The position numbers and the translations under genes were made by a program. A stretch of 64,000 bases of DNA from Gemmatimonadaceae bacterium. GTDB taxonomy: Bacteria; Gemmatimonadota; Gemmatimonadetes; Gemmatimonadales; Gemmatimonadaceae. Shown piece after piece: positions 47,752 to 64,000 of the stretch. Where the stretch lies: assembly GCA_031362845.1 (NCBI GenBank), contig JANLTI010000202.1, forward strand, positions 11,420 through 75,419. Direction: 5' to 3'. How positions within the stretch are numbered: position 1 is the stretch's first letter; each line of letters begins with the position of its first letter. Below the pieces are notes generated by a model. The model saw nothing but the letters and a program-made list of their open reading frames with translations. It was not told the origin of the DNA and searched no databases.

Positions 47752-48354
47752 ATGCCGCACACGCTGCCCGCACTGCCCTACGCCACGAATGCCCTCGAGC
47801 CGCACATCGACGCGCAGACGATGGAAATCCATCATGGCAAGCATCACAATGCGTACGTCACCAACCTGAACGCGGCACTCGAGAAGGCGCCCGAGCTCGC
47901 GGACAAGCCGCTCGAGGAGCTCCTCAAGAATCTGAGCGGCGTGCCGGAGGCGATCCGCTCGGCCGTCCGCAACAACGGCGGCGGACATTGGAACCATTCG
48001 CAATTCTGGAAGACGATGGGCCCGGGTGGCGGCGGCGCACCGACGGGGAAGCTGGCGGACGCGATCACCGCGGCGTTTGGTGATTTCGAGAAGTTCAAGG
48101 AGCAGTTCAGCGCCGCCGGTGTCGGGCGGTTCGGATCGGGCTGGGTCTGGCTGGTGAAGGAGGGGGGCAAGCTGGCGATCACGAGCTCACCGAACCAGGA
48201 CAATCCGCTCATGGACGGAAAGGCCGCGCCCATTCTCGGCAACGATGTCTGGGAGCATGCCTACTACCTGAAGTACCAGAACCGCCGGCCGGACTACCTG
48301 AAGGCGTGGTGGAACACGGTGAACTGGGCCGAGGTGGCGAAGCGATTCGGGTGA
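47752..48354 (+). CDS. sodA: Fe/Mn superoxide dismutase (Mn-type features)
   Basis: [49 protein letters not shown]. Confidence 0.95.
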
Positions 48355-48511: not shown

Positions 48512-50527
48512 TCAGGGTACCGGTTTCGGCTTCGGCTCGATCCGCAGCACCCACAGTCCGCTGTTGAAGTCGTTCACGTACGCGAGGCCGTCCTTCGGGT
48601 TCACGACGACGCCCCAGGTCATGGCCGCATTGGGGATTTTTCCCTTTGCGTCCGACGGCATGAACTCGCCGATTTCGCGACCCTGCGCGCGCAGGTCCCC
48701 GCGAAGCTCACCGCTCATGTCGAACGCCCGGAAGCCCGCGTTGTACGCGCCCATGTAGAGCGTGTCGCCGAGCATCCAGACGTTGTGGACGCCGCCGTAC
48801 TCCGGCTCGTACCACGCCACGGGCTTCGGATGCTCGATGTCCTTGACGTCCAGCACCTGCAACCGTCCGTGCGCTCGTGACAGGCCGCCGGAGAACAGCG
48901 TCTGCGCGGCGTCGTTGCCGAACACCTCGTCGGCGATGACGAGGTAGTCCCGATACCGCCACGCGGTATGCGTGCCGCGGATGAAACCCTTGCCTCCTTC
49001 CTTCTCGACGTCACGGTACAGCTGATCGAGGTCGTACTTGTATTGCGACACGATCTTCGGATTGGACGGCGAGCCCCCCTTGATGCCGTTGCCGACGTCA
49101 AGAATGACGATGCCATCGTTCCACCAGGAGCCGTAGAGGAGTCCGTCCTGCACGTCGATGTCGTGCAGCATGCGGCCCGCATCGGCTCGTGGCGTCTTCC
49201 ACGTGGAGACCTGCTTCGGATGGGCCGGATCGTTGATGTCGATGACGTGGACCGCCCCGGTCCCGTCGTTCGTGAGGTAGATGTGCGTGCCGTGCTTCGG
49301 CTGAGTGTGGATGAACGCGGAGTGTACGCCGGAGGTGACGCCGTCCGTGAACTCGCTCAGCGCTTTCGGATGCAATGGGTCGCGCGTATCCGCGATGACG
49401 ATGCCGTTCTTCCGGTCGGCCGCACCCTCGCGGGTGATCACCATGTAGTTGCCGTCGGGCGTCGTCATGATGTCGTTGATGGATCGCGCATTCACGACGA
49501 TCGAGTCCACGACGACCGGGCTGTTCGGGTTGGAAATGTCGATGGCGTAGACACGATCACCACCCATGATCGTGCCCAGGTACGCGACCTTCCCGTTGGG
49601 ATGCAGCCAGACTTCCGACGTGGCGAAGGTGTTGCGGAGCACCTTGCTCACGACCGTGACCGGCCGTCGCACGTCGCGATCTACTGCCGTGACGGTCGCG
49701 TCGGCGGCGTGTCGCCCCACGGACGCGGAGACCTGGTAGACACCCGGCTCGTACGCGACGAAGCTGCCATCGGCATCGAGCAGGCCCTTGCCGGGAGTGA
49801 ACGACCAGCTCGGCGTGATACCCGCGATCTCACGTCCCGCGGCATCGCGCACGACGGCTCGGAAGCGCACGACGTCGCCGGTGCGCACCGACGCCGTCGC
49901 CGGCATCACCTGCACGCTCGCGACGGTCGCCGACAGCACCTCCACGGGAACGCGCGTCGAGACGCCGCCCACCGATGCGCTCACGACAGCGCGTCCGGGG
50001 GCGATCGCCTCGAGACCGCCATCCGCCGCGACGCGCACGACGGAGGGCGCAGAGCTGGCCCACTGCACACGATCCGCACGTCGATCACCGACGTGGGAAA
50101 AGACGGTCGCTCCAAGGCGCATCCGCTGACCGGGCAACATCCGCGCGGGCTGCGGCGCGATGTCGATGCGCGACGCCGGCGCGGGCACCATCGCGACCTC
50201 GAAGCGTTCGATGACCGGCTTGGCGCCGCTTACGAGCGCCACCGCCGTCACGGGTATGGTGCCGATGGCGCCCGAGCGTACGAGACCGGTGGAATCCACG
50301 CTGCCCTCGAAATGGCCCCCCGCACTGACGAACATGATCCGCGCATTGGTGACCGGCGCGCCGGACGCATCGAGCAGTTGCGCGCGCAGGCGCAGCGAAT
50401 CGCCAGCGACGACCGTGCGGATGGCGGGCGTGATGACGAGTCGGCCGGCGGGTTGCGGCAGTTGCGCGCGCGCGAGGGAGAAGGCGCTGAGAAGCGGAAG
50501 GCAGGCGACGTAACGGGAAATGCGCAC
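48512..50527 (-). CDS. exported Big_2 (Ig-like) x about 4 plus LVIVD-repeat beta-propeller protein
   Basis: Start proposed at GTG 50527 (VRISRYVACLPLLSAFSLARAQ signal). Repeated ITP...V...G.S..L.A modules. C-terminal LVIVD-like blades (VYAIDISNPNSP, GIVIADTRDPLHP, AVHVIDINDPAHP, LQVLDVKDIEHP). Confidence 0.74.
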   Translation of the reverse strand: MRISRYVACLPLLSAFSLARAQLPQPAGRLVITPAIRTVVAGDSLRLRAQLLDASGAPVTNARIMFVSAGGHFEGSVDSTGLVRSGAIGTIPVTAVALVSGAKPVIERFEVAMVPAPASRIDIAPQPARMLPGQRMRLGATVFSHVGDRRADRVQWASSAPSVVRVAADGGLEAIAPGRAVVSASVGGVSTRVPVEVLSATVASVQVMPATASVRTGDVVRFRAVVRDAAGREIAGITPSWSFTPGKGLLDADGSFVAYEPGVYQVSASVGRHAADATVTAVDRDVRRPVTVVSKVLRNTFATSEVWLHPNGKVAYLGTIMGGDRVYAIDISNPNSPVVVDSIVVNARSINDIMTTPDGNYMVITREGAADRKNGIVIADTRDPLHPKALSEFTDGVTSGVHSAFIHTQPKHGTHIYLTNDGTGAVHVIDINDPAHPKQVSTWKTPRADAGRMLHDIDVQDGLLYGSWWNDGIVILDVGNGIKGGSPSNPKIVSQYKYDLDQLYRDVEKEGGKGFIRGTHTAWRYRDYLVIADEVFGNDAAQTLFSGGLSRAHGRLQVLDVKDIEHPKPVAWYEPEYGGVHNVWMLGDTLYMGAYNAGFRAFDMSGELRGDLRAQGREIGEFMPSDAKGKIPNAAMTWGVVVNPKDGLAYVNDFNSGLWVLRIEPKPKPVP

Positions 50528-50730
50528 GGGACAGGCTCCTGGAAGTTGGACGGCCGCCGGAAGCTCCGGCGAAGCGCGAGCGCTGTCAACGGCGTGCGCC
50601 GGTGTCGCTCGGGGAGGCGGCACGGCGCGGAGCACGGGTACATTCCAGAAGCGGCGAACGAACGCCACGCCCAGGGATCGCGACGCGGCAACCAGTCCGC
50701 CCGGACGATGAATCGACCCGTCACCCATAC

Positions 50731-51786
50731 ATGAACATGCCAACTCGCTCGTGGACCGGACGCTCGTACGGAACGGCGCTCACCATGCTGCTCCTCGCGA
50801 CGGCGTGTCGGACCGCGTCCCCCACGCCATCGTCGGTCGCCACTGCTCGCGCCGACACCGCGCCCTCTCCTCCGCCGGCGCGGTGGCTCACCATCATCGG
50901 CGAGTACGGACTGGACTCAGCGGACGTCATCGTACTCGAGCGCGGCGGACGGCTCTGGATGCGCACCGCCTCCATCGACACGCCAATCGTGGAACAGTCC
51001 GACGGCGGGTTCGTCACCGCCGATGCGCAGCAGCGCCGTATCACGTTCCGGCGTGGACCCACCGGGCGCATCGTGCAGCTCGAAGTCGACGGCGCCTCGC
51101 TCGCGCGCCGGCAGGTGGGACCCGAGTCGGGCAACCAACTCGTCATCACCCCGGTGCGCCCCCTCGACGAGCTGCGCCGCGAGGCGCTCGCCGCTCGGCC
51201 ACCGACGGAGCGCGGGTCGTTCCTGCCGATGGACCTGGTAGAGCTCACGACGCTCGATCCCACGATCAAGCTCGAGATCCGGTACGCCACGAGCAACAAC
51301 CTGTTCGGCGCGCCATTCTATTCGCAGGCGCGCGCGTTCCTGCAGCGGCCGGCGGCCGAAGCGCTGGTGCGTGTGAGCGCGGCGCTGCGGCCGCGCGGTT
51401 ACGGACTGCTCGTGCACGACGGCTACCGTCCGTGGTCAGTGACGAAGATGTTCTGGGATGCGTCGCCGGAGGAGAAGCACATCTTCGTCGCCAATCCTGC
51501 GCAGGGTTCGAAGCACAACCGCGGCGCGGCGGTGGACCTCACGCTGTACGAACTCGCGACCGGCGCGCCGGTGGAAATGGTGAGCACCTACGACGAGACG
51601 TCGTCGCGCGCGTACCCGGACTATCCGGGCGGAACGTCTCGGCAGCGCTGGCACCGCGCCCTCCTGCGCAGCGCGATGGAGGCGGAGCGATTCGCGGTGT
51701 ACGAGACGGAGTGGTGGCACTTCGACTTCGCCGAGTGGCGGCGGTATCCCATCGGAAATCTGGCGTTCGAGGAGCTGATGAAGTAA
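50731..51786 (+). CDS. D-alanyl-D-alanine dipeptidase (VanX/DdpX, peptidase M15D) lipoprotein with about 150 aa N-terminal extra domain
   Basis: Start at MNMPTRSWTGRSYGTALTMLLLATAC (lipobox). Catalytic-domain motifs RYATSNNLFG, LLVHDGYRPWSV, SKHNRGAAVDLTL, EWWHFDF. Confidence 0.87.
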   Translation: MNMPTRSWTGRSYGTALTMLLLATACRTASPTPSSVATARADTAPSPPPARWLTIIGEYGLDSADVIVLERGGRLWMRTASIDTPIVEQSDGGFVTADAQQRRITFRRGPTGRIVQLEVDGASLARRQVGPESGNQLVITPVRPLDELRREALAARPPTERGSFLPMDLVELTTLDPTIKLEIRYATSNNLFGAPFYSQARAFLQRPAAEALVRVSAALRPRGYGLLVHDGYRPWSVTKMFWDASPEEKHIFVANPAQGSKHNRGAAVDLTLYELATGAPVEMVSTYDETSSRAYPDYPGGTSRQRWHRALLRSAMEAERFAVYETEWWHFDFAEWRRYPIGNLAFEELMK

Positions 51787-51815: not shown

Positions 51816-51939
51816 GGAGGGAATCCACGTTCAGCGTTTGCCGTTGGGCGTTCACCGATTGGCGTTGTAGGGCGGAGACGCATTGAAACCCGGAACGGTC
51901 CACGCCGAACGGGTAACGCGTCACGTGGATTCCCTCTCC
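51816..51939. repeat. palindromic intergenic element (copy C) with GGAGGGAATCCACGT terminal inverted repeats and CGTT-phased heptad arms
   Basis: Left end ggagggaatccacgt (51816-51830). Right end acgtggattccctctcc (51923-51939). Arms read CGTTTGC CGTTGGG CGTTCAC CGATTGG CGTTGTA, and on the other strand CGTTACC CGTTCGG CGTGGAC CGTTCCG. Confidence 0.85.
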
Positions 51940-51966
51940 CAGCGCTTGACGTTCGCCCACCCGGCC

Positions 51967-53487
51967 TCATCGCCGCGCGCGTACGAACGTGGTGCCGTAG
52001 GCGCGTACCCCGCTGACCGCCCCGGTGCCCGTGGGCACGAAGGTCAAGGTCGTCGGGTCGTCGTTCGGCGTCGGTCGGCTGCGGAACACGTCGTGCTCCC
52101 AGTGATCGAGCATACCGAGATCAGCCTTCTCGAACCGGGCCCGCAGCGTGCCATCCACGAGCGTGATCGCGATGCTCCCATATGCCGAGTCGGTGTATGT
52201 GCCGACGTAGCGGTCGATGGGTAGTGACGCGCGGGTGCCGATGGAGCGGGCGGGCGGAGCTGCCGATGCGCGCCGCGCCGACAGCAGCGTGCGCAGATCG
52301 GTGCTCCAGTCACGCGACGGACCCGCGCCATACAAGTCGAACACCTGATACATGAGCGCGTGCCGGAGCTCGGCATGATCGAGGTTGGCGAGCACGAACA
52401 CCCCGACGCGCTGCTCGGGCAGCAGCCCGATGATCGCGCTCATGCCGTCGATGCTGCCGGTATGCATCCACACCGTCTGCCCGTGATAATCCTGGACGAA
52501 CCAGCCGAGCGCGTAGCTGAAGAAGTGTGGCTGCGCGAGTTCGAGCGCCGGGTACTGGCTGGACGGCACGCGAATCTGCGGCGCGACCAGTTCCGCGAAC
52601 GTGGCCGGCGTGATGAGTCGACTGGTTCCGACACGACCGCTATCGAGCATGAGCCGCATCCACCTGGACATGTCGGACACGCTCGACCACACCGATCCGG
52701 CGGCTGCCACGGCATCCGTGCTGCGAATGGGCACGACACGCACCGTGTCGTGGACCAGGTCGTGTGGACTCGCGACGTCGCTCTTGCCGATGATACCCGC
52801 CACGAGCGGCTCCGTCTCCCGCATGTTGAGCGGGGCGAGCAGTCGCGCGCGGAGAAAGGTCTCCCATGGCATGCCCGAGAGTCGCTCCACCAGCACCCCG
52901 CCGATGGCGTACACGACGTTCTGGTAGTTCCAGGTGGAGCGGAACGAGCTGGTCGGCCGCACGTAGCGCAGTTGCCGCATCATCTGCGCGATGGTGTACT
53001 GATTCTCCCGCACCGTCCAGAACAGGTCAGTGCCCGGCAGCCCCGTGCGATGCGTGAGCAGGTCGCGCACGGTGAGCTCTCGCGTCGCGTAGGGATCGTA
53101 GAGCCGGAACTCCGGCAGGTGATCGATCACCTTGTCGTCCCAGCGCAGCTTGCCCTCGTCCACCAGCATCGCGAGCGCCGCGGCGGTCATCGCCTTGGTC
53201 GTGGAGCCAACGGCGAAGCGCGTGTGCTCGGTGGCGCGCGCCGGCTTGCCGACTTCCGCGACGCCGTAGCCCGTCGCGAACACGAGCGAGTCGCCGCTGA
53301 CGACGGCGATAGCGAGACCCGGCACGCGCCAGTCGCGCGCCGCGCGCTCCACGTAGCGGTCGAAAGCTGGCCAGTCGGGCGCGCGACGTTGTGCCTGTTG
53401 CGCGTTGAGCGAGGAGGCAAGCAGCAGGGCGGCGAGCGCGGTGCGCCTCAGCCTGGAGGGGTTCGCAATGAGTCGTGACGGGTTCAT
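51967..53487 (-). CDS. S12-family serine hydrolase (beta-lactamase fold; D-aminopeptidase/DD-peptidase-like) with C-terminal DUF3471-like domain
   Basis: Start at MNPSRLIANPSRLRRTALAALLLASSLNAQQ (signal). SxxK = FAVGSTTKAMTAAA. YxN-type NYQNVVY. Confidence 0.84.
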   Translation of the reverse strand: MNPSRLIANPSRLRRTALAALLLASSLNAQQAQRRAPDWPAFDRYVERAARDWRVPGLAIAVVSGDSLVFATGYGVAEVGKPARATEHTRFAVGSTTKAMTAAALAMLVDEGKLRWDDKVIDHLPEFRLYDPYATRELTVRDLLTHRTGLPGTDLFWTVRENQYTIAQMMRQLRYVRPTSSFRSTWNYQNVVYAIGGVLVERLSGMPWETFLRARLLAPLNMRETEPLVAGIIGKSDVASPHDLVHDTVRVVPIRSTDAVAAAGSVWSSVSDMSRWMRLMLDSGRVGTSRLITPATFAELVAPQIRVPSSQYPALELAQPHFFSYALGWFVQDYHGQTVWMHTGSIDGMSAIIGLLPEQRVGVFVLANLDHAELRHALMYQVFDLYGAGPSRDWSTDLRTLLSARRASAAPPARSIGTRASLPIDRYVGTYTDSAYGSIAITLVDGTLRARFEKADLGMLDHWEHDVFRSRPTPNDDPTTLTFVPTGTGAVSGVRAYGTTFVRARR

Positions 53488-53534
53488 CCATCCCCGATGG
53501 AAAGTACGACACCGGCAAGTGGACCGCTCCCGCA

Positions 53535-54716
53535 TCACGCCGTCTTCCAGATTGCGGTCAATACCCGCTGAAAATTGCCGCCGAGAATTCCTTCGATCTG
53601 CGCGTCCGTGTATTTCCGACGGATGAGGCCCTCCGTGAGATCGAACATGCGCTTCGGGTGGTCGAGTCCCTCGATGTCGATCTTCTCACGGAAGCCGTAG
53701 CTCCCCTTGTAGCCAGCGCGGAGCTGCTTGTTCGCCTCCGGGGGCATGTCGTCGTAGCCATCGAGGTCGATGTCGCTGCCCACGCCGAGAAACTCGGGGC
53801 CCACCAGCCTGGTCACGTGGTCGAAGTGGTCGAGCGCGTGTTCGATGGTGGTCGGCTCGTGATCACGCACGAACATTCGCACGCCAGTGATTCCCATCAC
53901 GCCGCCCGACTTCGCCATCGCGCGAATGGCTTCATCGGTCTTGACGCGCGGGTGACCCGGTACGAGCGCCCGGCAATTGGAGTGCGTGATGAGCACGGGT
54001 CGCTTCGAGGCTTCGAACGCGTCGAGCGTGGTGCGATCGCCGCAGTGAGACACGTCCACGGCCATCCCCACCGTGTTCATGCGGTCAACGATCGCCAGCC
54101 CGAAGTCGCTCAGTCCCTCGTCGCGACGCTCGGTGGCGCCATTGCCGATCAGGTTCCGCCCGTTGTAGGTCAGTTGTGACACCCGCTGCCCCTGACCGTA
54201 GAAGAAGTCCACGTCCTCCGGGCGACGGAAGTGACCGGAATTCTGAAGGCCGAGCAGCACACCTACCTTCCGCGACCGCTTGGCGCGCGCGAAATCTGCC
54301 GCGCTGTCCACGCGCATGAGCCGCTCGTCGTTGCCGGCAATGAATCCGTTCCAGCCGGCGAACCACACGAGCGCCGTCTGATACGGGTCGAGCCCGCCGA
54401 GTCCAATGGCGGGATGAAAGACGGAGATCCCCGAGTCCACGAACTTCTGGAAGTGGGCGTCGGTGAAGCTCTCCGCGTTCACCGTCCACTTCGCCTGCAA
54501 CGGAAAGTCGAGCGTGAAGGGCGCGAGCATGTCCACCACCGTCGCGCGTTGCATCAGCGCGATGGTGCGGGCCGAGTACTCCGCTCCGCGGAACAGTGTG
54601 TGGCGGCCGAGGTTGATCATCGCGGCAGCAACCGTCGGAGCGGCAACGAGAGCGGCACAGGCCGCAGCAGCAGTTTTCAGCAATGAGCGGCGGGAGACGT
54701 CAGTCGGCAAGGACAT
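53535..54716 (-). CDS. membrane (renal-type) dipeptidase, peptidase M19, Tat-exported
   Basis: Tat motif SRRSLLKTAAAACAALVAAP. Motifs DVSHCGD, LITHSNCRAL, HPRVKTDEAI, GVGSDIDLDG. Confidence 0.9.
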   Translation of the reverse strand: MSLPTDVSRRSLLKTAAAACAALVAAPTVAAAMINLGRHTLFRGAEYSARTIALMQRATVVDMLAPFTLDFPLQAKWTVNAESFTDAHFQKFVDSGISVFHPAIGLGGLDPYQTALVWFAGWNGFIAGNDERLMRVDSAADFARAKRSRKVGVLLGLQNSGHFRRPEDVDFFYGQGQRVSQLTYNGRNLIGNGATERRDEGLSDFGLAIVDRMNTVGMAVDVSHCGDRTTLDAFEASKRPVLITHSNCRALVPGHPRVKTDEAIRAMAKSGGVMGITGVRMFVRDHEPTTIEHALDHFDHVTRLVGPEFLGVGSDIDLDGYDDMPPEANKQLRAGYKGSYGFREKIDIEGLDHPKRMFDLTEGLIRRKYTDAQIEGILGGNFQRVLTAIWKTA

Positions 54717-54767: not shown

Positions 54768-54883
54768 GGGATCCACGTGACGTGTTTCCCGTTTAGCGTC
54801 CAACGTTCACCGTTCCACTGCATTCGCCGCCGTGACACGCACCACGGGCAGCGCCGAACGGGAAACGCGTTACCTGGATTTCC
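54768..54883. repeat. palindromic intergenic element (copy D) with GGGATCCACGTGACG / CGTTACCTGGATTTCC ends
   Basis: Left gggatccacgtgacgtgtttcccgtttagcg. Right, reverse-complemented, ggaaatccaggtaacgcgtttcccgttcggcg. The interior is phased every 7 nt by CGT (cgtttag cgtccaa cgttcac cgttcca). Confidence 0.85.
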
Positions 54884-54923
54884 GTTATCTCGCAACTGAG
54901 CAATGAAGTCCCTCGCGACTGTG

Positions 54924-56537
54924 CTACGGCGTTCGGCTTGCGCTCGCCATCGGCGGCCGCCGACGGAACGTGGCTGGCCCGGCCAGATCGATCTGCACTT
55001 CGTCCACCGTGGCGTTGGCGCTGAGCCGGAACTGGACGGGAATGGGGCCGAGCACCGGCGTGCCGAAACGCGTACGAAATGTGTCGAAGTGCCAGTGCTC
55101 GAGCGCGCCGTTCCAGTTGGGTCCGAACGACAGCAGCAGCTTGCCTGCCGAGTCGCGCACGGTGACGTCGCCGAGCAGGCTGTCGCTGTAGACACCGGCG
55201 TACTTGTCCAGCGGGAGTGATGGCTTCGTGTTCGGCACGCGAGACGCCTCCATCTTCTTCAGCGCTTCGCGGCCCCTCGCCCGTGCCGCCTCGCTGCGCG
55301 CGAATGCCTTGGCACTCCAGTCCTCCGGCGTCACGCCAAGGTGCAGATCGAATGCGCGGTTCATCAGCGTCGTCGGCATTCCGGAGCCGTTCATGTTGGA
55401 CAGGATCACGATCCCCATCCGTTCCTCGGGGATCATGCCGACCAGCGCCGTCATGCCGTCCACGTTGCCGCCGTGCTGCACCACGAGCTTTCCGCGGTAG
55501 TCCTGGAGGAACCAGCCCAGCCCATAGGCCTGGAGATGCGTGTACGGATTGCTCCTGCGCGCACCCGTATCGATCGGGATGACGATGTGCGGCGTCTGCA
55601 TCTCGTCGATCATGCGCTCGCTGATGAGCCGCTTGCCGCCGATCGAACCGCGCGCGAGCTGTAGCCGCACCCATTGCGCCATGTCGAGCGCAGTCGAGTT
55701 GATGGAGCCGGCCGGGCCCGCGTTGTCGATATTCCGCCAGTCCACGGCGCGTACCACCCCATCCACTTCGGCATGCGGCGTGGCGAGGTTCGGTCCGCCG
55801 GCGATCTGGCGAATGGACGTCGTGCTCGACGTCATGCCGAGTGGCACGAGCAGGCGATCGCGCACGAAGTCGTCCCATGTCGTATTCGCCATGTGGGCGA
55901 CGATCTGGCCCGCCGTGATGTACATGATGTTCTGATAGCCGAACTGCGAGCGGAAGCTCCACGTCGGCTGGAGGTAGCGCACGCGGCGCACGATCTCGTC
56001 GCGGTCATAGCCGGAGCCGTACCAGACCATCTCCCCGCGCGCGAGTCCGCTGCGGTGGCTGAGGAGATCGCGCACCGTCAGCTCGCGCGACGCATACGGA
56101 TCGGCGAGCTGGAAGCCGGGGAAGTAGAGCGAGGCGCGCCCGTCCAGCGACAGCTTCTTCTCGTCGGCGAGCATCGCGACCGCCGCCGCGGTGAACGCCT
56201 TGGATGACGAGCCGATGGCGAACACCGTGCGCTCATCGACCGCCTGGGTAGTGCCCATATGCCGGACGCCATAGCCCTTGGCGAAAATCACCGAGTCGTT
56301 GCGCACGATGGCGATGGCAGCGCCCGGTACCTTCCACGTCGCGAGCGCCTGATTGACGTACGCGTCCCACCCGGGATACGGCTCCCGTGACAACGACTGC
56401 TGCGCCGGCATCCGTGGCGCGGCGCCGGCGAGCGCGACGCCTGAGGCGCAGGCGATAATGGTGGCGCCGCGGCGCCAGGAGCGTGCAGTGCCATGCGACG
56501 AGCGCATCGAGCGCGGGCGATGCATCATTGGAGACAT
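54924..56537 (-). CDS. S12-family serine hydrolase (beta-lactamase fold), paralog of 51967..53487
   Basis: Signal-like N-terminus. SxxK = FAIGSSSKAFTAAA. GYQNIMY. Same C-terminal domain architecture as the paralog. Confidence 0.84.
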   Translation of the reverse strand: MSPMMHRPRSMRSSHGTARSWRRGATIIACASGVALAGAAPRMPAQQSLSREPYPGWDAYVNQALATWKVPGAAIAIVRNDSVIFAKGYGVRHMGTTQAVDERTVFAIGSSSKAFTAAAVAMLADEKKLSLDGRASLYFPGFQLADPYASRELTVRDLLSHRSGLARGEMVWYGSGYDRDEIVRRVRYLQPTWSFRSQFGYQNIMYITAGQIVAHMANTTWDDFVRDRLLVPLGMTSSTTSIRQIAGGPNLATPHAEVDGVVRAVDWRNIDNAGPAGSINSTALDMAQWVRLQLARGSIGGKRLISERMIDEMQTPHIVIPIDTGARRSNPYTHLQAYGLGWFLQDYRGKLVVQHGGNVDGMTALVGMIPEERMGIVILSNMNGSGMPTTLMNRAFDLHLGVTPEDWSAKAFARSEAARARGREALKKMEASRVPNTKPSLPLDKYAGVYSDSLLGDVTVRDSAGKLLLSFGPNWNGALEHWHFDTFRTRFGTPVLGPIPVQFRLSANATVDEVQIDLAGPATFRRRPPMASASRTP

Positions 56538-56637
56538 CCGGGGGAAAGGAGTCGAGGATCAAGCGGTGAACGCGGTGCAGCCTCGCAGCGCGCGAATCGG
56601 ACGATGGCGTTCGCCAGGGGAGTCTCGTCGTGCTGTG

Positions 56638-57972
56638 TCAACTTCCGCCGGCGATGGTCGGATTGTTGATGCGTTCGACGTCCGGCAACGGGAAGCAGGT
56701 CTGCGTTCCGTAGACCCCTCCGTACTGGTAGGCCGCGCCCGCGGCCGGCGTGAACGCGATGCCGTAGCGCCGCATGTCGCCGAGCCGGTGCCCTTCCATG
56801 AACAGTTCGCGACGGCGCTCTTCGATGATCTGCGCGATGAGGTCGGCCGCGGTGGCTCCCACCGGACGAGCGTAGGACGGCACGCCGGCCGTGCGCGCAC
56901 GCGCCCGGTTGATTGCGGCCTCCGCCTCCGCGAGGTTGCCGGTGAGGGCGGCATTCTCGGCGATGATGAGCTGGGCTTCCGCGTAGCTCGCAATTCGGAT
57001 CGGCGAGGTAACGGTGGCGTGCTTGGCCGGGATGAACAGCCGCGAGCCGGTGGCGGTGCCGTTGCGATTTAGGTCCGTCACGATGACGCGCGGGTCCTGC
57101 GTGGTACCACCGGGCGCGAGCACATTGCGGAACGATGGATCGACCGTGCTGAACGAACTCTGCGAGATCGTGATGAACACGGTGTTCTGGCGTCGCGAGT
57201 TGACGGCGTCGGGTGAATTGTTGAGGACGAAGGTCGCCGGGATCAGCGCCGCGTCGGCCGCCGCGGCCGCCAAGTTCGACCCGCCGCCAAGGTCGAGCAG
57301 CACGCGCGCGCGACCGAGTCGCGCCAGATTGAGCGTGGTGACGTCGTTCGCCGTCGTCGCCGCGGCGATGGCCTTTGTGAACCGGGTCACGGCCTCGGCG
57401 AACAGCGCGGGTGAATTCATCTCGGGCCCGAGGTTGATCGCGGCGCTGCACATGCCCTCGCCGAGCAGTGTCAGGCTGTAGCCGGCGTACGCGTACGACT
57501 GCCCAATCAGCTTCGAGCGGTTCGGCACCTCGGCGTCGGTCCACCCCTCGAGCTTGGCCGCCGCAGTGTCAGCCGTCGCGCGCGCCACGGAGAGCGGAGT
57601 GTAGATGCCGGGTTGCTGGCTCGAGCTCGGTGTGGGCGACGCGCAAGTGTTGGTGCCGTAAGTGGCGTTGGTGTTCACGCGGCGCGCGTCGTAATCGAAG
57701 TTCGCCAGCGCCGAGATGCCGACGGTTACCTCATCGGCGAACAGACCGCTACCGACCACGTACCGGCTGAAGGCGCACTCGAAGTCACCGATCGCGCCGT
57801 TCACGAGCAGTGGCGCGTTCGTCGGCACGTAAAGGGTCTCGACAGAGAGCGTTCCGGGATTCTCCTGCTTGAGACTCGTGATTTCGCTGCATGCCGTTGC
57901 CATCATTGCGAGCATACTCGCGGCGAGCGCCATGCGCCGGCCGGAGACCGATTCATTCAGTTGGTTTCGCAT
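56638..57972 (-). CDS. susD: RagB/SusD-family outer-membrane nutrient-binding lipoprotein
   Basis: Lipobox LAMMATAC. C-terminal signature IIEERRRELFMEGHRLGDMRRYG. It lies 3 nt downstream of a SusC-type gene. Confidence 0.87.
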   Translation of the reverse strand: MRNQLNESVSGRRMALAASMLAMMATACSEITSLKQENPGTLSVETLYVPTNAPLLVNGAIGDFECAFSRYVVGSGLFADEVTVGISALANFDYDARRVNTNATYGTNTCASPTPSSSQQPGIYTPLSVARATADTAAAKLEGWTDAEVPNRSKLIGQSYAYAGYSLTLLGEGMCSAAINLGPEMNSPALFAEAVTRFTKAIAAATTANDVTTLNLARLGRARVLLDLGGGSNLAAAAADAALIPATFVLNNSPDAVNSRRQNTVFITISQSSFSTVDPSFRNVLAPGGTTQDPRVIVTDLNRNGTATGSRLFIPAKHATVTSPIRIASYAEAQLIIAENAALTGNLAEAEAAINRARARTAGVPSYARPVGATAADLIAQIIEERRRELFMEGHRLGDMRRYGIAFTPAAGAAYQYGGVYGTQTCFPLPDVERINNPTIAGGS

Positions 57973-57975
57973 GGC

Positions 57976-60900
57976 TCAGAAGCTCAGGTTGACGGTCGCC
58001 AGCAGGCGGGTGAGCGGAGGCACGAGCCCCTGATTGCCGATGGCGGATGAGGTCGCGACGTTGTTGGTGTTGCCCTCGGGATCGAGGCCCGTGAAGTTCG
58101 TCCACGTGTGCAGCTCGCGGCCCGCGATCGTGACGGACGCCGCCGAGAATCCGCGGATGTACCGCGTCGGCACCGTGACCGTGGCCGACAGCTCGCGCAG
58201 CTTGGCGAACGAGCCGTCTTCGTAGTACTGGTCGGTGATGCCCAGCCCCGCGGCGCTGCCGACATGCTCGGCCAGGTACGTGGGGTCGTACTCGAGCGGG
58301 TAGTAATTGGAGCGGCACAGGTTGGCGCCCGCGGCACCCTGACAGCGAATGGCGTCGTTCGTGTTGTACGCCCGGTGGCCGCGCTTGAAGTCCACCAGTC
58401 CGTACAGCCGCAGGTTCTTGCCGATATAAAAGGTGTTGCCCAACGACCCGGTGGTGCGCGGTGTCGGCGTGCCGATGAACTGGAACGGTGCCGTGGCGCA
58501 GGCCACCGGCGCGGCGCCAGCGGCGCCCTCGCACAGCACGTTGATAGCGAGGTTCGTCACCGGATCACGATCCGCCGACACCACGCGCCGCGTGTAGATG
58601 CCGCCGATCGGACGACCGACGATGTTGCTCTGACCGGCGCTCAGCACCACGCCGCCGATGCCGCCGAGATCCTTGATCTCATCGCGGTTGGTGGCAAGGT
58701 TGCCGACGATCTCCCACGAGAACCCCTGGCGTGTGATCGCCTGGAGCGTGGCCAGCAGCTCGACGCCGGAATTGTCGACGCGGCCGAGGTTGGCGAACTG
58801 GCTGCCGGCGAAGCCGCTGGAGGGTGCGATGGGCTGACTGATGATGACGTCCTGCGTTCGCTTGCTGAACCAGGTGAAGTCCAGCCCGAGGCGCCCGAAC
58901 AGCTGGCCGTCGAAGCCCAGCTCCGTCTCCTTTCCGCGTTCCGGCTTGAGGTCGGGATTGCCGATGGTGTTCGGGGTGACGGCGCTCGTACCGCCCGGAC
59001 CCTGCGCGGGAGAGTACGTGCGCAGCGCGCTGAACGTCGCGGGCTGCCGCCCGGACTCACCGTACGCGGCGCGGAGCTTGAGACTGTTCACGTAGGCGTT
59101 CGCCGGCCAGAACGACTCCTCGTTCACCACCCACGCCGCGCTGACTTTCGGGTAGGTGATCCACTTGAAGTCCTCGCCGAAGGCGCTGTTGTTGTCCACT
59201 CGCAACGCGGCGGTGAGGAAGAGCCGATCGCCCCAGCCGAACTGCTGCTGTCCATACGCGCCGATGGTGGTGTTGATGGTCTGCGTCTGCGTCGCGGTCG
59301 AGGGGTTCGAGACGGCACTCACCGTCTCCACACCGAGGCCAGGGAACCCGGTGCCGCCGAGGAAGCTGGAGTTGAGCTCCGTGCGGAAGAACTGTCCACC
59401 GAGCGAGGTGGTGGAGCGCAGCGAACGGCTGATGTCGAACTTCAATGAACCCGCATAGTCCGCCGAGGCGATGGTGTTGCGGCGCAGCGTCTGGCCGATG
59501 CTGCCGGCGCCGGCGACGGGGCCGATGAACGCGACGAGATCCGGCGTCGCGAATCGCTCGATGGCCCGGCTGTCGTCAGCGGTGAGGTCGATGCCGGCGA
59601 CGAGCCGCTGGCTGAACCAGGCGGTGGGACGATGGTTGAGGGTGGTACTGCCCGTGAAGCGGTGTACGCCCTGCGCATTGTCGTACAGGGTCTGCGGCAC
59701 TTCGGGCGGAAAGTTCGGATAGTGCCCGCGCGCAGCGGCAAACAGGAGCGAGTGACCGGCCACGGCGCCGAGCAATGCTGACGCGCCCACATCCGCCCCG
59801 AGGTGGCCGGAAAGGTTGACGTAGTTGAGGCTCGTGCCGAAGTCCACGGTCTCGCTCGGCGCCACGCCGAGATTCGCGTGAAAGGTGAACTGGCGGAGTG
59901 AGTTGTTCGGCTCGACGCCGAGGTCGTTCTGGTAGGACCCGGACGCGTAGTAGCGCACCACGTCGCGCCCGCCAGACAGCGAGCCGCTGTATTGGCGCGT
60001 CTGTCCCCGCCGGAACAGCGGCGTCCCGCGCGCCTCCTCGACCTCCACCCCATTCCACGTCACGATCTCGCCCGTGGTGGCGTTGCGCGCATAATTCGTG
60101 GGCACGCGGCCGGCCGCATCGCGGAACCAGATCAGTCCGTCCTGCACCTGCAGCTTCACCGCGGGCTTGCCCGTGATGGCGCCCTTCTTCGTGATGATCT
60201 GGATCACGCCGTTCGCCGCCTCCGTACCGTAGATGGTGGCGGCGGCGGGGCCCTTGATGATCTCGATGCTCTCGATGTCTTCCGGGTTGATGTCGTTCAG
60301 TCGCCCTGACACGTTCGACGCCTGACCACCCAGACGGCCGGGAGGGGCGACCGGCCCGGCCGTCGTCGCATTGTTGACGCGCACCCCGTCCACGTAGAGC
60401 AGCGGCGAGTTGTCCAACCCGATGCTGCTGCGGCCACGGATCTGGATGCTTGGCCCTGCCCCGAGCCGACCGGTGCCGGGTGCGATGATGACACCCGGCG
60501 CGCGAGCGCCGATGAGACTACTCAGGCTCTGCGACGCGGACTTCTGCGTGGCTTCGACGGCATTGATCGTCGTCACCGCATTGCCGATCGAGCGGCGCAC
60601 TTCGCCGCCCGCCGTTCCCGTCACTACCACTTCATCGAGCGAAGTGGCAGACGCAGTCAGTTCGATCGTTGCGTTCGTAGTGCCGGCGCTCGCCACGACG
60701 ATGGATTGGCGGACGGACGCGAAGCCGAGACGCCGCACGCTCAACACATGAGTTCCACTCGGCACACCGAGGATGCGGAAGCGTCCATCATCGGCGGACA
60801 CCGCGCCGAGGCGCGTACCGTCCACCTGAATGGTGGCGCCGGCGAGTGGCCGGTTGCTGCGCGCCTCGGTCACCTGCCCCGTCACCGTCGCGACCGCCTG

Positions 60901-61011
60901 TTGGGCGACTACGGGTTGCGCGGAGATGAGCAGCCAGAGGAGTGCGGCTACTGCTCCCGCCACGATCCGGCACGACGGCGTCGCAGCCCGACATGGATCT
61001 GTTCGCATCAT
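57976..61011 (-). CDS. susC: SusC/RagA-family TonB-dependent outer-membrane transporter
   Basis: 1011 aa. CarboxypepD_reg domain (VTGQVTEARSNRPLAGATIQVDG...). Plug (IESIEIIKGPAAATIYGTEAANGVIQIITKKG). C-terminal beta-barrel ending LATVNLSF. Confidence 0.92.
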   Translation of the reverse strand: MMRTDPCRAATPSCRIVAGAVAALLWLLISAQPVVAQQAVATVTGQVTEARSNRPLAGATIQVDGTRLGAVSADDGRFRILGVPSGTHVLSVRRLGFASVRQSIVVASAGTTNATIELTASATSLDEVVVTGTAGGEVRRSIGNAVTTINAVEATQKSASQSLSSLIGARAPGVIIAPGTGRLGAGPSIQIRGRSSIGLDNSPLLYVDGVRVNNATTAGPVAPPGRLGGQASNVSGRLNDINPEDIESIEIIKGPAAATIYGTEAANGVIQIITKKGAITGKPAVKLQVQDGLIWFRDAAGRVPTNYARNATTGEIVTWNGVEVEEARGTPLFRRGQTRQYSGSLSGGRDVVRYYASGSYQNDLGVEPNNSLRQFTFHANLGVAPSETVDFGTSLNYVNLSGHLGADVGASALLGAVAGHSLLFAAARGHYPNFPPEVPQTLYDNAQGVHRFTGSTTLNHRPTAWFSQRLVAGIDLTADDSRAIERFATPDLVAFIGPVAGAGSIGQTLRRNTIASADYAGSLKFDISRSLRSTTSLGGQFFRTELNSSFLGGTGFPGLGVETVSAVSNPSTATQTQTINTTIGAYGQQQFGWGDRLFLTAALRVDNNSAFGEDFKWITYPKVSAAWVVNEESFWPANAYVNSLKLRAAYGESGRQPATFSALRTYSPAQGPGGTSAVTPNTIGNPDLKPERGKETELGFDGQLFGRLGLDFTWFSKRTQDVIISQPIAPSSGFAGSQFANLGRVDNSGVELLATLQAITRQGFSWEIVGNLATNRDEIKDLGGIGGVVLSAGQSNIVGRPIGGIYTRRVVSADRDPVTNLAINVLCEGAAGAAPVACATAPFQFIGTPTPRTTGSLGNTFYIGKNLRLYGLVDFKRGHRAYNTNDAIRCQGAAGANLCRSNYYPLEYDPTYLAEHVGSAAGLGITDQYYEDGSFAKLRELSATVTVPTRYIRGFSAASVTIAGRELHTWTNFTGLDPEGNTNNVATSSAIGNQGLVPPLTRLLATVNLSF

Positions 61012-61094
61012 GAGCTCCTGGAGTAGACCACGTTTAGGTCACCTTCGATCATGTCTGGGGCAGGTCGCGTTGGACGGTCCGATGCGAAGCAGGC

Positions 61095-61336
61095 GGAATC
61101 CACGTGACGCGTTTCCCGTTTGGCGTTTCCCGTTTGGCGTTTTTGCGATTGGCGTTTCCCAATCGGCGTTTCCCGTTTGGCGCTTCCCGTTTGGCGTTTC
61201 CCGTTTGGCGTTTCCCGTTTGGCGTTTCCCGTTTGGCGTTTCCCGTTTGGCGTTTCCCGTTTGGCGTTCTCACCGCGGTCACGCCCTGAAACGCGAAACG
61301 GAGCACGGGCAACGGGTCACTCGTCACGTGGATTCC
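61095..61336. repeat. palindromic intergenic element (copy E) with GGAATCCACGTGACG terminal inverted repeats and an expanded internal tandem array
   Basis: Left ggaatccacgtgacg (61095-61109). Right cgtcacgtggattcc (61322-61336). The right arm, reverse-complemented, reads AGTGACC CGTTGCC CGTGCTC CGTTTCG. Confidence 0.9.
61110..61264. repeat. 14-bp tandem repeat (CGTTTCCCGTTTGG) x about 11, made of two alternating heptads
   Basis: Counted directly: 8 perfect units, one 1-mismatch unit (cgcttcccgtttgg) and two degenerate units (cgtttttgcgattgg, cgtttcccaatcgg). Confidence 0.95.
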
Positions 61337-63101
61337 GGTTGCCCGCGATCGAACCTTGTCGTTCCTGCCACCCATGTCCGCGCACGATCCGCCCTGGCTT
61401 CGCGCCCGTGTGCTTGCCGTCGCGAACCACGTCGATGCCATTCACGAAGACGTCGCGGACGCCGGTCGACAGCTGGTGCGGCCGCTCGTAGGTGCTGTGC
61501 TCCTGGATCGTGGCCGGATCGAACACCACGACGTCGGCGTACAGGCCGGGACGCAGCAGCCCGCGGTCGCCGATGAGCAGCCGCTCGGCGACAGCGCCGG
61601 TCATCTTCCGCACGGCATCCTCGAGCGGGATGATGCGCTCGTCGCGCACGTACTTGCCGAGGATCCGCGTGTAGGTGCCGTACGCGCGGGGATGGGTCAT
61701 CCCGCGTGCGCTGTCGGGGTCCTGGCCGCTCGCATCGGTGCCGATCTTCATCCACGGCTGCTTGAGTGCCAGCCGCACGTTGTCCTCGTTCATGAGGAAG
61801 AAGATCGTGCCGATGCCGCCCGGCTCGGTGAGCACGAGATCCATCAGCGTCTCGAGCCAGTCCTTGCCGGTGCCGGCCGCCACCTCCGACAGCCGCTTTC
61901 CGGACCAGCGCTGGTTCTGCGGCGCTCGGAGCGTGGTGAGTAGCACGCCCTGCGGCGTCCCCTGCTCGCAGAGGCTTTCCCAGTAGCTCGTCGGGCGCGC
62001 GAACTCTTCCCGGATCTGCGCGCGAATCGCCGGGTCCGCGAGACGCTGCTTGAGTTGGCCGTCCGCGTCGAAGCGCGGCGGAAAGCAGGCGGCGAGCCCG
62101 GTGCCGCCCGCGGTGTACGGATAGATGTTTGCCTGCACGTCCAGTCCGGCCGCGCGCGCGGAGTCGATCTTGGCAATCATCGCCGGCATCTTCGGCCAGT
62201 TGGCCGTGCCCGCTGCCTTCAGATGATAGATCTCCACCGGCACACCGCCCTCACGACCGATGCGGAGCGCCTCGTCCATCCCCTCGAGGACCTTGTCCGC
62301 CTCCGAACGCATGTGCGTGATGTACAGCCCACCGTACGGCGCCATCGCCTTCACGATCTCGATCAATTCTTCGGTGCTTGCGTAGTTTCCGGGCGGATAG
62401 ATGAGGGCGGTGCCGAGTCCGAATGCGCCGTCTTCCATGGCGCGGCGCAGCGCGCCACGCATCGAGTCGAGCGCGGCAGCATTCGCCGCGCCCATCTTCA
62501 GCCCCATGCCGTACTCGCGCAGTGTGCTGGCACCGACGAACGATCCGACGTTCGGCGACGTGCCGTTCGCCTGCATCGCACGCAGCCATGTGTCGAAACC
62601 TCGCGGGCCCATGAAGCGACGCGCCGCCGCGTTCTCGGGCCGGTCGCCCGCGCGACCACCGATCGTGAGCTCGCTGATGGGCGCGGCGGTGTACGCCTCG
62701 CCCAGGATTTCGGTGGTGACGCCCTGGGTCAGCTTGCTCACGCTACGACCGTCACCATTCAGGAATCCACCGCCGCCACTCTGGATGTCGATGAAGCCGG
62801 GCGCGACGACCATTCCCGTCGCGTCGATGCGCCGTCGCGTCGGCCGGCCAGCCAGTGAACCACGGCGACCCACCGCGGCAATGCGGTCGCCTCGAATCGC
62901 GACGTCGCCGTAGAACCAGGGGTTTCCGGTTCCGTCGACGATGCGCCCGTTCGTGATGACGACGTCGTAGCTGTCTGACGCCGCGGGAAGGCGCACATCC
63001 GGACCGGCCGGCCGCGCGAGCGATCCGGTGCAGGCGCTTCCGACCAACGCGCTGATGGCGCTGAGGAGCGCTCTCATTCGTCGTGACGTGAGGGCGCTCA
63101 T
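61317..63101 (-). CDS. N-acyl-D-amino-acid deacylase (D-aminoacylase)-like amidohydrolase, lipoprotein
   Basis: Lipobox SALVGSAC. D-aminoacylase-like N-terminal beta domain (VVITNGRIVDGTGNPWFYGDVAIRGDRIAAVG). Motifs ITHMRSE, VEIYHLKAAG, KIGTDASG. The last 6 codons and the stop lie inside repeat copy E. Confidence 0.78.
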   Translation of the reverse strand: MSALTSRRMRALLSAISALVGSACTGSLARPAGPDVRLPAASDSYDVVITNGRIVDGTGNPWFYGDVAIRGDRIAAVGRRGSLAGRPTRRRIDATGMVVAPGFIDIQSGGGGFLNGDGRSVSKLTQGVTTEILGEAYTAAPISELTIGGRAGDRPENAAARRFMGPRGFDTWLRAMQANGTSPNVGSFVGASTLREYGMGLKMGAANAAALDSMRGALRRAMEDGAFGLGTALIYPPGNYASTEELIEIVKAMAPYGGLYITHMRSEADKVLEGMDEALRIGREGGVPVEIYHLKAAGTANWPKMPAMIAKIDSARAAGLDVQANIYPYTAGGTGLAACFPPRFDADGQLKQRLADPAIRAQIREEFARPTSYWESLCEQGTPQGVLLTTLRAPQNQRWSGKRLSEVAAGTGKDWLETLMDLVLTEPGGIGTIFFLMNEDNVRLALKQPWMKIGTDASGQDPDSARGMTHPRAYGTYTRILGKYVRDERIIPLEDAVRKMTGAVAERLLIGDRGLLRPGLYADVVVFDPATIQEHSTYERPHQLSTGVRDVFVNGIDVVRDGKHTGAKPGRIVRGHGWQERQGSIAGNRNPRDE

Positions 63102-64000
63102 GTGGCCGCCACCACGGTGCGCTGCGTCGAGACGTCCTCTGTGCGCACGGTGATCGAGTCCAGGAAGTCGCGGTCCACCATCACGCCGAGTCCAGGCCGG
63201 TCGATCGGCACGCGCACCATTCCTTCATCGTCCATTGTCCACTCCGGAGTAATGACGTCGCGGTGCCAGTATCGTGCGCTCGGGCTCAGGTCACCCGGCA
63301 AGGAGAAGTTCGGGAGCGACGCGAGCGCCACGTTGTACGCCCGGCCGATGCCGCTCTCGAGCATGCCGCCGCACCAGACGGGGATCTGCGCGCTGGCACA
63401 GACGTCGTGGATGGCCTTCGACGCACTGAATCCGCCAACGCGGCCCGGCTTGATGTTCACGATCCGTCCGCTCCCGAGCGCGATCATGTCTTCCGCGCGG
63501 TCCACGCTCGTGATGGATTCGTCGAGACAGATCGGTGTCTTCAGGCGGCGCTGGAGGGCAGCGTGCCGCACGAGGTCATCGTCGCCGAGCGGTTGCTCCA
63601 GCATGATCAGCCCGAATTCGTCGAGTCGCCCGAGCTGATCGCTGTCGCGGAGCGTGTACGCCGAGTTCGCGTCCGCCATCAGTCCCATGTCTGCGCCGAG
63701 CGCGTCCCGCACCGCGCGCACGTACTCGACATCCTGCCCGGGACGGATCTTCAGCTTGATCTTGCGGTAGCCAGCGGCGACCGCGGCCTGTGCGCGCGCG
63801 ACGAGGGCGGCGGGCTCGCTCTGCAGGCCGAGCGAGATGCCGGTGGGCACGCGGTCGCGAGTGCCGCCAAGGAGCGATGACAGCGACACGCCGGCCGATT
63901 CGGCGGCGAGGCCCCAACAGCCCATCTCGAGCGCGGCCTTCGCCATGTTGTGGCCGCGGATGTGTTCGTCCAGGAGCGGATGCACCTCCGCCGGACCCGC
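63098..64000 (-). CDS. enolase-superfamily racemase/epimerase (N-succinylamino-acid racemase / o-succinylbenzoate synthase-like), N-terminus beyond the window
   Basis: KIKLKI (KxK), DANSAY, MLEQPL, CLDESI, NIKPGRVGG, in the order typical of the MLE/OSBS-NSAR subgroup. The frame is open to base 64000. ATGA-type 4-nt overlap with the D-aminoacylase start. Confidence 0.8.
   Translation of the reverse strand, partial: AGPAEVHPLLDEHIRGHNMAKAALEMGCWGLAAESAGVSLSSLLGGTRDRVPTGISLGLQSEPAALVARAQAAVAAGYRKIKLKIRPGQDVEYVRAVRDALGADMGLMADANSAYTLRDSDQLGRLDEFGLIMLEQPLGDDDLVRHAALQRRLKTPICLDESITSVDRAEDMIALGSGRIVNIKPGRVGGFSASKAIHDVCASAQIPVWCGGMLESGIGRAYNVALASLPNFSLPGDLSPSARYWHRDVITPEWTMDDEGMVRVPIDRPGLGVMVDRDFLDSITVRTEDVSTQRTVVAAT

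Follow-up and report, generated by a model that had tools for sequence, protein, structure and literature searches.

A heptamer-armed hairpin element inserted between a deacylase gene and susC in a Gemmatimonadaceae bacterium, and its proposed relation to four-helix-bundle cassettes

We analyzed a 64,000-nt stretch of a Gemmatimonadaceae genome (contig JANLTI010000202.1; hereafter the window), focusing on element E, a 242-bp repeat element at 61095-61336 between the genes for an N-acyl-D-amino-acid deacylase and a SusC-like receptor. With moderate confidence, E is interpreted here as a non-autonomous member, lacking an open reading frame (ORF), of a Gemmatimonadaceae hairpin family, derived from a cassette similar to the intervening sequences (IVSs) of 23S rRNA, bearing an array generated by slippage and tolerated in its operon through RNase III. 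This interpretation draws on the ends that E shares with longer elements enclosing a four-helix-bundle gene, on relatives whose deacylase-susC junction lacks E, and on the heptamer arrays that accompany PF05635 genes across phyla.

Anatomy of element E and its hairpin family

The 15-nt ends of E, GGAATCCACGTGACG at 61095-61109 and its exact reverse complement at 61322-61336, are the perfect inverted repeats described in the original prediction, and an imperfect inverted repeat runs about 19 nt past both of them (61076-61142 versus 61289-61355, 73% complementary). When the 15-mer was searched window-wide with 0 mismatches, its sole other occurrence was at 51919-51933, the right end of a sister copy named C. 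Tandem Repeats Finder (TRF) reported an array at 61109-61268 (period 14, 11.4 copies, 90% matches, score 262); no other tandem array of the window comes close to it in strength. Exact CGTTTCCCGTTTGG units start at 61110, 61124, 61167, 61195, 61209, 61223, 61237, and 61251; these are the eight perfect units, whereas units 3, 4, and 6 are degenerate, in agreement with the earlier count of about 11 tandem 14-bp units with eight perfect ones. The parts of E are as follows.

61095..61109, minus strand: terminal inverted repeat (TIR) at the transcript 3' end, made of the GGAATCCA terminus and heptamer 1 (CGTGACG)
61110..61264, minus strand: array of 11 x CGTTTCCCGTTTGG (RNA sense CCAAACGGGAAACG), from TRF, unit positions, and heptamer register
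61265..61287, minus strand: central non-repetitive hairpin turn, from the sequence and the apical stem-loop in minimum free energy (MFE) and centroid folds
61288..61321, minus strand: unexpanded arm, the transcript 5' arm, from heptamer parsing and inverted-repeat pairs with the array
61322..61336, minus strand: TIR at the transcript 5' end, translated within the insert-derived C-terminal tail of the deacylase

Read from the terminus, the unexpanded arm consists of AGTGACC, CGTTGCC, CGTGCTC, CGTTTCG, and CGTTTCA. Heptamer parsing gives 5-6 diverged heptamers here, where four degenerate heptads had been counted before.

E shares its construction with a family of hairpins in which the order from either end is GGAATCCA, CGTGACG, CGTTTCC, CGTTYGG, CGTTGnC, CGTTnnG, and CGTTTCA, followed by a short turn; the "TIR" of the family comprises the first 8 nt plus heptamer 1. 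The same terminus and heptamer order recur in the three window copies and in copies from the related loci L001-L008 and L013. A family profile built from the copies and run over the window with nhmmer found three copies (C, D, and E), all within a single 10-kb gene cluster, the remaining 50 kb containing no copy. The earlier description of E as a TIR-bounded repeat copy with one arm expanded is supported. The two sister copies in the window are as follows.

51820..51933, no strand assigned: sister copy C, 114-bp short form (nhmmer E 1e-29)
54768..54882, no strand assigned: sister copy D, 115-bp short form (nhmmer E 2e-28)

Copy C lies between convergent genes, one for a VanX-like peptidase M15 and the other at 51967..53538 (minus strand), and copy D between two co-directional minus-strand genes of the same locus. 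At least nine further family copies were found in related contigs, every one of which contained some. In the source metagenomes, the terminal words reach 4-7x genome depth, and at least eight different sequences flank them. Termini of orthologous short copies are preserved across three genomes, with only ~81-88% DNA identity between the neighboring genes. A TIR-pattern scan gave one match in a genome collection (a Gemmatimonadaceae metagenome-assembled genome) and four loci in metagenomes, so that the exact terminus is rare in public data; blastn of a short copy against plasmids and phages gave no match. The CACGTG palindrome, on which the inverted repeats had been described as centered, is not conserved in the family, and long forms read CACGTT.

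The array of E is a tandem re-iteration, in one arm, of family heptamers 2 (CGTTTCC) and 3 (CGTTTGG), and exactly these two heptamers are the best conserved of the family. Changes in heptamer number recur among family members, the one-sided expansion of E being a further case. In L006, the orthologue of copy D measures 244 bp compared with 115 bp in the window, and its right arm has 12 heptamers, including (GGTGAAC) x 3, compared with 5 in the window. This orthologue (L006 14952-15195) was also seen to contain an 85-bp tandem duplication covering 20 nt of flank, the TIR, and the left arm. Arms of long forms at the same genomic site range from ~7 heptamers (L004 and L007) to ~20 per arm (L006). 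Since eight units of the E array are still identical, its expansion appears to be recent. The window DNA is present in six freshwater-sediment metagenomes, and in three independent ones the depth of perfect-repeat 31-mer unitigs relative to the flanks is 4.3x, 4.7x, and 3.6x, compared with 4.2x predicted from the window; these ratios come from assembled unitigs and leave about one unit either way. It is unlikely that the array length is an assembly artefact.

Insertion into the deacylase-susC junction

The features that surround E at its junction are listed below.

61337..61362, minus strand: extra ~25 nt outside the TIR that came with the insertion, from alignment, blastn, and protein tails
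61012..61094, minus strand: spacer of 83 nt from E to the susC start, from sequence and alignment
61317..63101, minus strand: deacylase, Amidohydro_3 (N-acyl-D-amino-acid deacylase family, aminoacylase), flanking E upstream
57976..61011, minus strand: SusC-like TonB-dependent receptor, flanking E downstream, with the SusD gene next

These Amidohydro_3 and SusC-like neighbors match the predicted placement between a D-aminoacylase-like gene and susC. Both are on the minus strand, so transcription would run leftward and yield an RNA containing (CCAAACGGGAAACG)n, as had been expected for co-transcription. An exact-sequence look-up of the window deacylase returned no record, and its closest homologues, with 85-92% identity, come from Gemmatimonadaceae metagenome contigs.

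For the junction comparison, five orthologous loci were taken from related contigs. In the alignment, E is absent at the deacylase-susC junction of L007, L008, and L012. The deacylase of L007 and L012 has 585 aa and stops 20 nt before the start of susC, which keeps its own ribosome-binding site (CACCAGGAGnnnnTGATGCGAACA); L008 has no element in the alignment, yet its called stop-to-start gap is 119 nt. The junction of L006 holds half an element: its 25-nt flank is that of the window, the TIR and five heptamers follow, and the beginning of the loop leads directly into the susC ribosome-binding site, so that only the upstream arm is kept. The site is therefore polymorphic (full in the window, partial in L006, and empty in L007, L008, and L012), and the three relatives without the element, together with the 20-nt gap in two of them, identify E as a lineage-specific insertion. 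The insertion took place in an ancestor common to the window genome and L006, at a junction that was tight and presumably co-transcribed.

The insertion also replaced the last codons and the stop of the deacylase. The stop codon at 61317-61319 lies inside E, which now supplies it, and the last residues (...QERQGSIAGNRNPRDE*) are read from the insert, namely the flank, the TIR, and the end of the unexpanded arm. Among the homologues inspected, a deacylase of 594 aa with this variant tail was seen in the window and L006 only, the length being 585 aa otherwise. Compared with the empty site, the filled site has ~25 nt extra on one side and ~45-70 nt extra on the other, matching nothing else. L006 also has the extra 61337..61362, which empty sites lack and which is partly complementary to 61076-61094; blastn of this flank gave a match in L006 only. 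On the other side, the first ~19 nt of the 83-nt spacer (61076-61094) prolong the imperfect inverted repeat, and the conserved susC ribosome-binding site AGGAG is located at 61015-61019. No match elsewhere and no source was found for this spacer.

The original prediction had suggested that the array sets the promoter spacing of susC and gives slippage-based variation in its expression. Neither a sigma-70-like promoter nor an intrinsic terminator was predicted in 60500-62000. The same spacer compared in relatives (L007, L008, and L012) is without the element, and the 20-nt ancestral junction of L007 and L012 leaves no room for a promoter, which argues strongly against the promoter-spacing idea. 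As for the variation in expression, the depth in three samples fits the reference unit number within about one unit. A closely related explanation is that the array is a contingency (phase-variation) tract whose slippage alters promoter or leader spacing and thereby switches susC. The long and perfect tandem run, located upstream of a gene for an outer-membrane receptor, would suit such a tract, and unit number does differ between orthologous family copies in different lineages. However, the scan predicted no promoter-like site, the ancestral junction within the operon measures 20 nt, and the depth ratios fit the reference. Moreover, the array lies at least 99 nt from the susC start and outside coding frames, its 14-nt unit is not a multiple of three, and it occupies neither a promoter spacer nor a 5' coding region, where the tracts of phase-variable loci are found. 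We consider this explanation extremely improbable. It is also very unlikely that the hairpin is an attenuator or terminator between the deacylase and susC, lowering susCD relative to the upstream genes. The structure in transcript sense is indeed very stable (-113 kcal/mol), but no U-run follows the stem in transcript sense, the terminator scan is empty, and susC and susD would lack a promoter.

The cluster housing C, D, and E (window 50602-63985) resembles a locus for utilization of D-amino-acid peptides or peptidoglycan peptides. Its genes encode a VanX-like peptidase M15, an M19 dipeptidase, a beta-lactamase-family protein, SusD, SusC, the N-acyl-D-amino-acid deacylase, and an enolase-superfamily (MR_MLE) protein, and relatives of the cluster have a GntR regulator, an amino-acid permease, and a peptidase M20 further upstream. 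In L004 and L013, a family copy (L004 3418-3531 and L013 4853-4966) stands exactly at the junction where ~9 kb is missing, from ~75 nt into susC through the gene adjoining peptidase M15; this absence may be an element-associated deletion. In addition, a 12-nt tandem repeat (CCGTGAGTGCTC x ~3) directly follows a family copy downstream of an hslV-like gene at L001 7899-7935 and L003 2287-2330.

Long forms and heptamer arms around PF05635 genes

Long forms sharing the ends of E were found at L004 8773-9483, L006 1576-2488, L007 113-739, and L008 175 onward. In the 711-bp long form of L004, the same terminus and heptamers bracket one ORF with a family match, namely to PF05635, "23S rRNA-intervening sequence protein" (1.2e-27), and TIGR02436, "four helix bundle protein" (3.6e-26); it also matches the pentameric Xanthomonas protein XCC0516 (PDB 2gsc, 5e-10). 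The cassette site is identical in all four loci, between the peptidase M20 and amino-acid permease genes. It lies ~5 kb upstream of the deacylase in relatives, which by synteny would place it just past the right edge of the window. The ratio of nonsynonymous to synonymous substitution rates (dN/dS) between orthologous four-helix-bundle ORFs is 0.15-0.35, with dS up to 1.4, indicating purifying selection. In the source metagenomes, contigs at window depth carry a permease and a four-helix-bundle ORF, which are 80-89% identical to their L004 counterparts. No transposase was seen in the loci examined, PF05635 being the only family match among long-form ORFs. The long-form ends together with the PF05635 ORF match the architecture of ORF-bearing 23S rRNA IVSs, that is, a stem, an ORF in the loop, and heptameric repeats.

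Other arms were also noticed around such genes in the family Gemmatimonadaceae. In L010, a Gemmatimonadaceae four-helix-bundle gene is bracketed by inverted GGTTnnn heptamers (9830-9880 and 10400-10445), and in L009, such a gene is bracketed by a 12-nt GCGCGGTTTCCG stem plus CCGTTnn heptamers (9860-9900 and 10400-10415). The differing arms of L009 and L010 imply that several arm subfamilies coexist in Gemmatimonadaceae.

We then sampled 21 four-helix-bundle genes from Gemmatimonadaceae, Cyanobacteria, Azospirillum, and Xanthomonadales, including twelve genes of cyanobacterial plasmids, one of an Azospirillum replicon, and two Xanthomonadales loci reached through the 2gsc sequence. Seven-nt repeats, mostly inverted heptamer arrays, are present in the flanks of 20 of them. 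For 18 of the 19 scored genes, 7 was the best period among 3-12 in one or both 220-nt flanks; among background tiles located outside known elements, the share was ~1%. In most cassettes, the array before the gene reads as the reverse complement of the array after it, and the heptamer differs from cassette to cassette (GTAGGGA/TCCCTAC, GGGAACA/TGTTCCC, GGGTGTG/CACACCC, AAGGGAA/TTTTCCC, and GGTGACA/CTGTCAC). The association of heptamers with four-helix-bundle genes is wide. Apart from a note on Coxiella, our literature searches found no paper tying heptamer arrays to PF05635 genes.

The insertion sites of these genes (L016, L017, L026, L020, L027, and L029) are otherwise tight operons. The Azospirillum gene, with the same arms, is inside a large subunit (LSU) rRNA gene (Rfam, 694 bits), which makes its cassette a genuine IVS. 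In Xanthomonas campestris and Rhodanobacter, the gene is found between accB and accC, bracketed by GGGAATC-type heptamers. Further cassettes are housed between cas6 and cas4 (Anabaena and Pseudanabaena), between cas10 and cmr3 (Picosynechococcus), and at a junction of ribonucleotide reductase subunits (Nostoc). PF05635 has been associated with CRISPR adaptation modules (PMC10910872); this link may be a by-product of insertion into operon junctions.

Several published observations can be set beside these cassettes. The IVS of Coxiella occupies helix 45 of 23S rRNA, its excision by RNase III has been shown experimentally, and it has two or three tandem GACAGAT heptamers, depending on the strain, before an S23p (PF05635) ORF (PMC4990558). 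The GGGAATC repeats around the accB-accC gene are the same ones that have been described as enriched in Xanthomonas, often as convergent pairs, and as unexplained (Rehm et al. 2015, PMC4692102). Heptamers are the commonest long simple-sequence repeats of bacteria (PMC4692102; PMC4679880), and a preference of polymerase slippage for 7-nt units has been proposed for bacteria, as cited in PMC4679880.

A further observation concerns the terminus with its G-rich lead-in (window 51817-51827 and L004 8770-8780), which reads GGGAATCC. This sequence contains the Xanthomonadales heptamer GGGAATC/GAATCCC that brackets the four-helix-bundle genes of L027 and L029, which could be coincidence or shared ancestry.

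Two heptamer structures of other kinds were found elsewhere in the window. A second type of heptamer hairpin, without the GGAATCCA terminus, occupies 48355-48510, between the stop of a superoxide-dismutase-like gene (47752..48354, plus strand) and a convergent gene (48512..50743, minus strand). Its order is (GTGAATC/GTGAACG) x ~11, a GC-rich central hairpin, and (ACGGTTC/AGTTCGC) x ~6, asymmetric like E, and it folds at -89.5 kcal/mol (z -8.4). At 24023-24070, a perfect (GTGAACC) x 6.9 array lies 43 nt off the 5' side of tRNA-Ala(TGC) (23907-23980, minus strand); it is one-armed, and no obvious complementary array was seen.

Comparison of the E family with known systems revealed partial resemblances. 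Like the 23S rRNA IVSs of Leptospira, Coxiella, Xanthomonas, and Brucella, the family has an inverted-repeat stem with a loop that is empty or holds a PF05635 ORF, tandem heptamers of variable number in the arms, and insertion into a transcribed unit. The stem of E has 15-bp perfect ends and 67-nt arms at 73% complementarity, and an ORF is present in the long forms L004, L006, L007, and L008 but not in E. Unlike these IVSs, E is located between protein-coding genes and not in helix 9, 25, or 45, its CGTTnnn heptamers and GGAATCCA terminus are family-specific, and its excision by RNase III is putative. No rRNA was found by Rfam in the window, where E stands between Amidohydro_3 and SusC-like genes, and Rfam gave no match for E either, with the whole window at gathering score or with 60900-61500 at E<=1. 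By this measure, E belongs to no known RNA family. The short tandemly repeated repetitive (STRR) sequences of cyanobacteria, Xanthomonas GGGAATC arrays, and Nostoc GGGGA(T/C)T arrays are, like the E family, intergenic, with a 7-nt period and often inverted pairs (PMC4692102). Such bacterial arrays are often inside operons, their length varies between related genomes, and their function is not established (PMC4692102). Compared with them, E has position-specific diverged heptamers, except for heptamers 2 and 3, and a defined terminal motif, and it is not G-quadruplex-prone.

[quoted passage not shown] In contrast to MITEs, the long relative of the E family encodes a four-helix-bundle protein and not a transposase, no target-site duplication is recognizable, and the ends continue into reiterated subterminal heptamers. 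Avd belongs to the same PF05635-like superfamily as the long-form protein (PMC10053308); unlike in Avd systems, no reverse transcriptase, template repeat, or variable repeat was seen beside the cassettes examined. Overall, E resembles both an ORF-less IVS in mRNA and a MITE while failing a defining feature of each, and it is a further instance of the poorly understood heptamer-repeat phenomenon of bacteria.

Other candidates were rejected on anatomical grounds. Repetitive extragenic palindromic (REP) sequences and bacterial interspersed mosaic elements (BIMEs) are GC-rich palindromes of 20-40 bp with a GTAG or CGTC head and an associated REP-associated tyrosine transposase (RAYT) gene. The size (114-242 bp) and heptamer build of E and its relatives are unlike those of REPs. 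A CRISPR array and an integron attC site were ruled out by anatomy, as attC stands on one side of a cassette only. A coding repeat was dismissed for the 14-nt unit, which is not a multiple of three, and a G-quadruplex for the 11-nt spacing of GGG.

Proposed explanation, alternatives, and implications

In the explanation that we favor, E would derive from a four-helix-bundle cassette by loss of its loop and ORF, and its array would have arisen recently by replication slippage. E would be transcribed within the operon mRNA, where its RNA is predicted to fold into a long stem with imperfections, in which heptamer cores extend the perfect 15-bp TIR helix that closes it. RNase III could cut this stem, as it does in rRNA IVSs, and such cleavage would make the insert tolerable in a transcribed junction, at most uncoupling the stability of the upstream and downstream cistrons. 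The array expansion would probably be neutral or nearly so. Folding as a single strand gave -113.1 kcal/mol for E (MFE, z -4.6 versus shuffles), -71.3 kcal/mol for copy C (z -7.5), and -58.4 kcal/mol for copy D (z -5.4), and short copies in general fold at z -5 to -11. Pairing of the family arms rests on the conserved CGTT/AACG cores, with the variable triplets mostly forming small internal loops.

Several observations weigh against this explanation. By tblastn, no four-helix-bundle gene is present in E or in the whole window, and contigs matched by depth are what suggests such a gene in the window genome itself. The filled/empty alignment contains no recognizable target-site duplication and no direct repeat, and no clean empty/filled junction was found, extra sequence having come along with E on both sides. 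Because L006 was assembled from short reads, an artefact of collapse could account for the truncated copy there. A search for RNA runs containing this DNA returned none, and transcription through E and its cleavage by RNase III are both steps that we infer. The expansion makes the E hairpin strongly asymmetric, which may impair the function of the stem. Furthermore, RNAalifold gave no covariation bonus (covariation term +0.73, with double changes in 5 of 30 pairs), and arm complementarity is 0.675 within an element compared with 0.673 between elements (permutation p 0.44). On these two results, the proposal of a conserved RNA structure supported by covariation was dropped for the family. As complementarity is not element-specific, selection could act on the heptamers as protein-binding sites and not on pairing.

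This last point leads to an alternative in which the heptamers are reiterated protein-binding sites, either for the pentameric four-helix-bundle protein or for a recombinase, with arm pairing secondary and E titrating or recruiting the factor on DNA or RNA. It comes near the earlier suggestion that the reiterated motif could sponge or recruit a binding factor. Both arms show conservation of heptamer position and sequence, with no compensatory change specific to an element, and the amplified units are exactly heptamers 2 and 3, the most conserved ones, which would amount to 11 extra site pairs. The four-helix-bundle ORF is under purifying selection at a fixed site, and heptamer arrays accompany these genes across phyla while their sequence differs by cassette. 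Avd binds nucleic acid. As a relative of PF05635 proteins, Avd is an accessory factor of diversity-generating retroelements (PMC10053308). The co-variation of arms between cassettes (GTAGGGA/TCCCTAC and GGGAACA/TGTTCCC) does not help, since it is predicted by pairing and by protein-site co-evolution alike, and the proposed slippage preference for 7 nt, as cited in PMC4679880, would explain the period without any protein. We regard this alternative as rather unlikely.

E might instead be the dead relic of an old insertion with a chance microsatellite expansion, neither processed nor bound, which only lengthens the susC spacer. Consistent with a relic, the one-sided expansion breaks the symmetry of the hairpin, L006 lost half of E at the same site and kept the operon, heptamer repeats are the commonest long simple-sequence repeats of bacteria (PMC4692102; PMC4679880), and unitig depth in three samples reveals no detectable heterogeneity of array length. 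Against it, E has retained perfect 15-bp ends and first heptamers that agree with the consensus, and the termini of orthologous short copies are retained in three genomes despite the divergence of their neighbor genes (~81-88% DNA identity). In addition, an mRNA stem longer than 20 bp is unlikely to escape RNase III. A dead relic is judged unlikely, although it deserves consideration.

As a possible generalization, which we put forward with considerable doubt, inverted heptamer arrays would be the cis-acting partner of PF05635 genes, and the two together would form one phylum-spanning class of self-insulating cassettes that settle in transcribed junctions and shed ORF-less hairpins, with the 7-nt period set by the protein or copying machinery that reads it and not by mere slippage. 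Cassettes of this class would lodge in 23S rRNA helices, in the accB-accC, cas6-cas4, cas10-cmr3, and ribonucleotide reductase junctions, and in peptide-utilization operons, and the shed hairpins would include E, the Xanthomonas GGGAATC pairs, and part of the cyanobacterial STRRs. Heptamer repeats of cyanobacteria have been known since the first STRR reports. The locus studied here ties together three decades-long puzzles, namely bacterial heptamer repeats, the ORF in 23S rRNA IVSs, and the scattered "four helix bundle protein" genes. A gene-less hairpin in the window shares its exact ends with a cassette bearing one of these genes, and 7-nt repeats flank 20 of the 21 sampled genes.

Should this link hold, it would offer a testable hypothesis, in which a protein binds heptamers and RNase III insulates a cassette riding on host transcripts, and it would warn that "associations" of PF05635 with CRISPR adaptation may only reflect insertion at operon junctions. 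For the organism itself, the consequence is modest: an operon for D-amino-acid and peptide utilization has received three inserts, one of which, E, rewrote the C-terminus of the deacylase and separates it from susC and susD.

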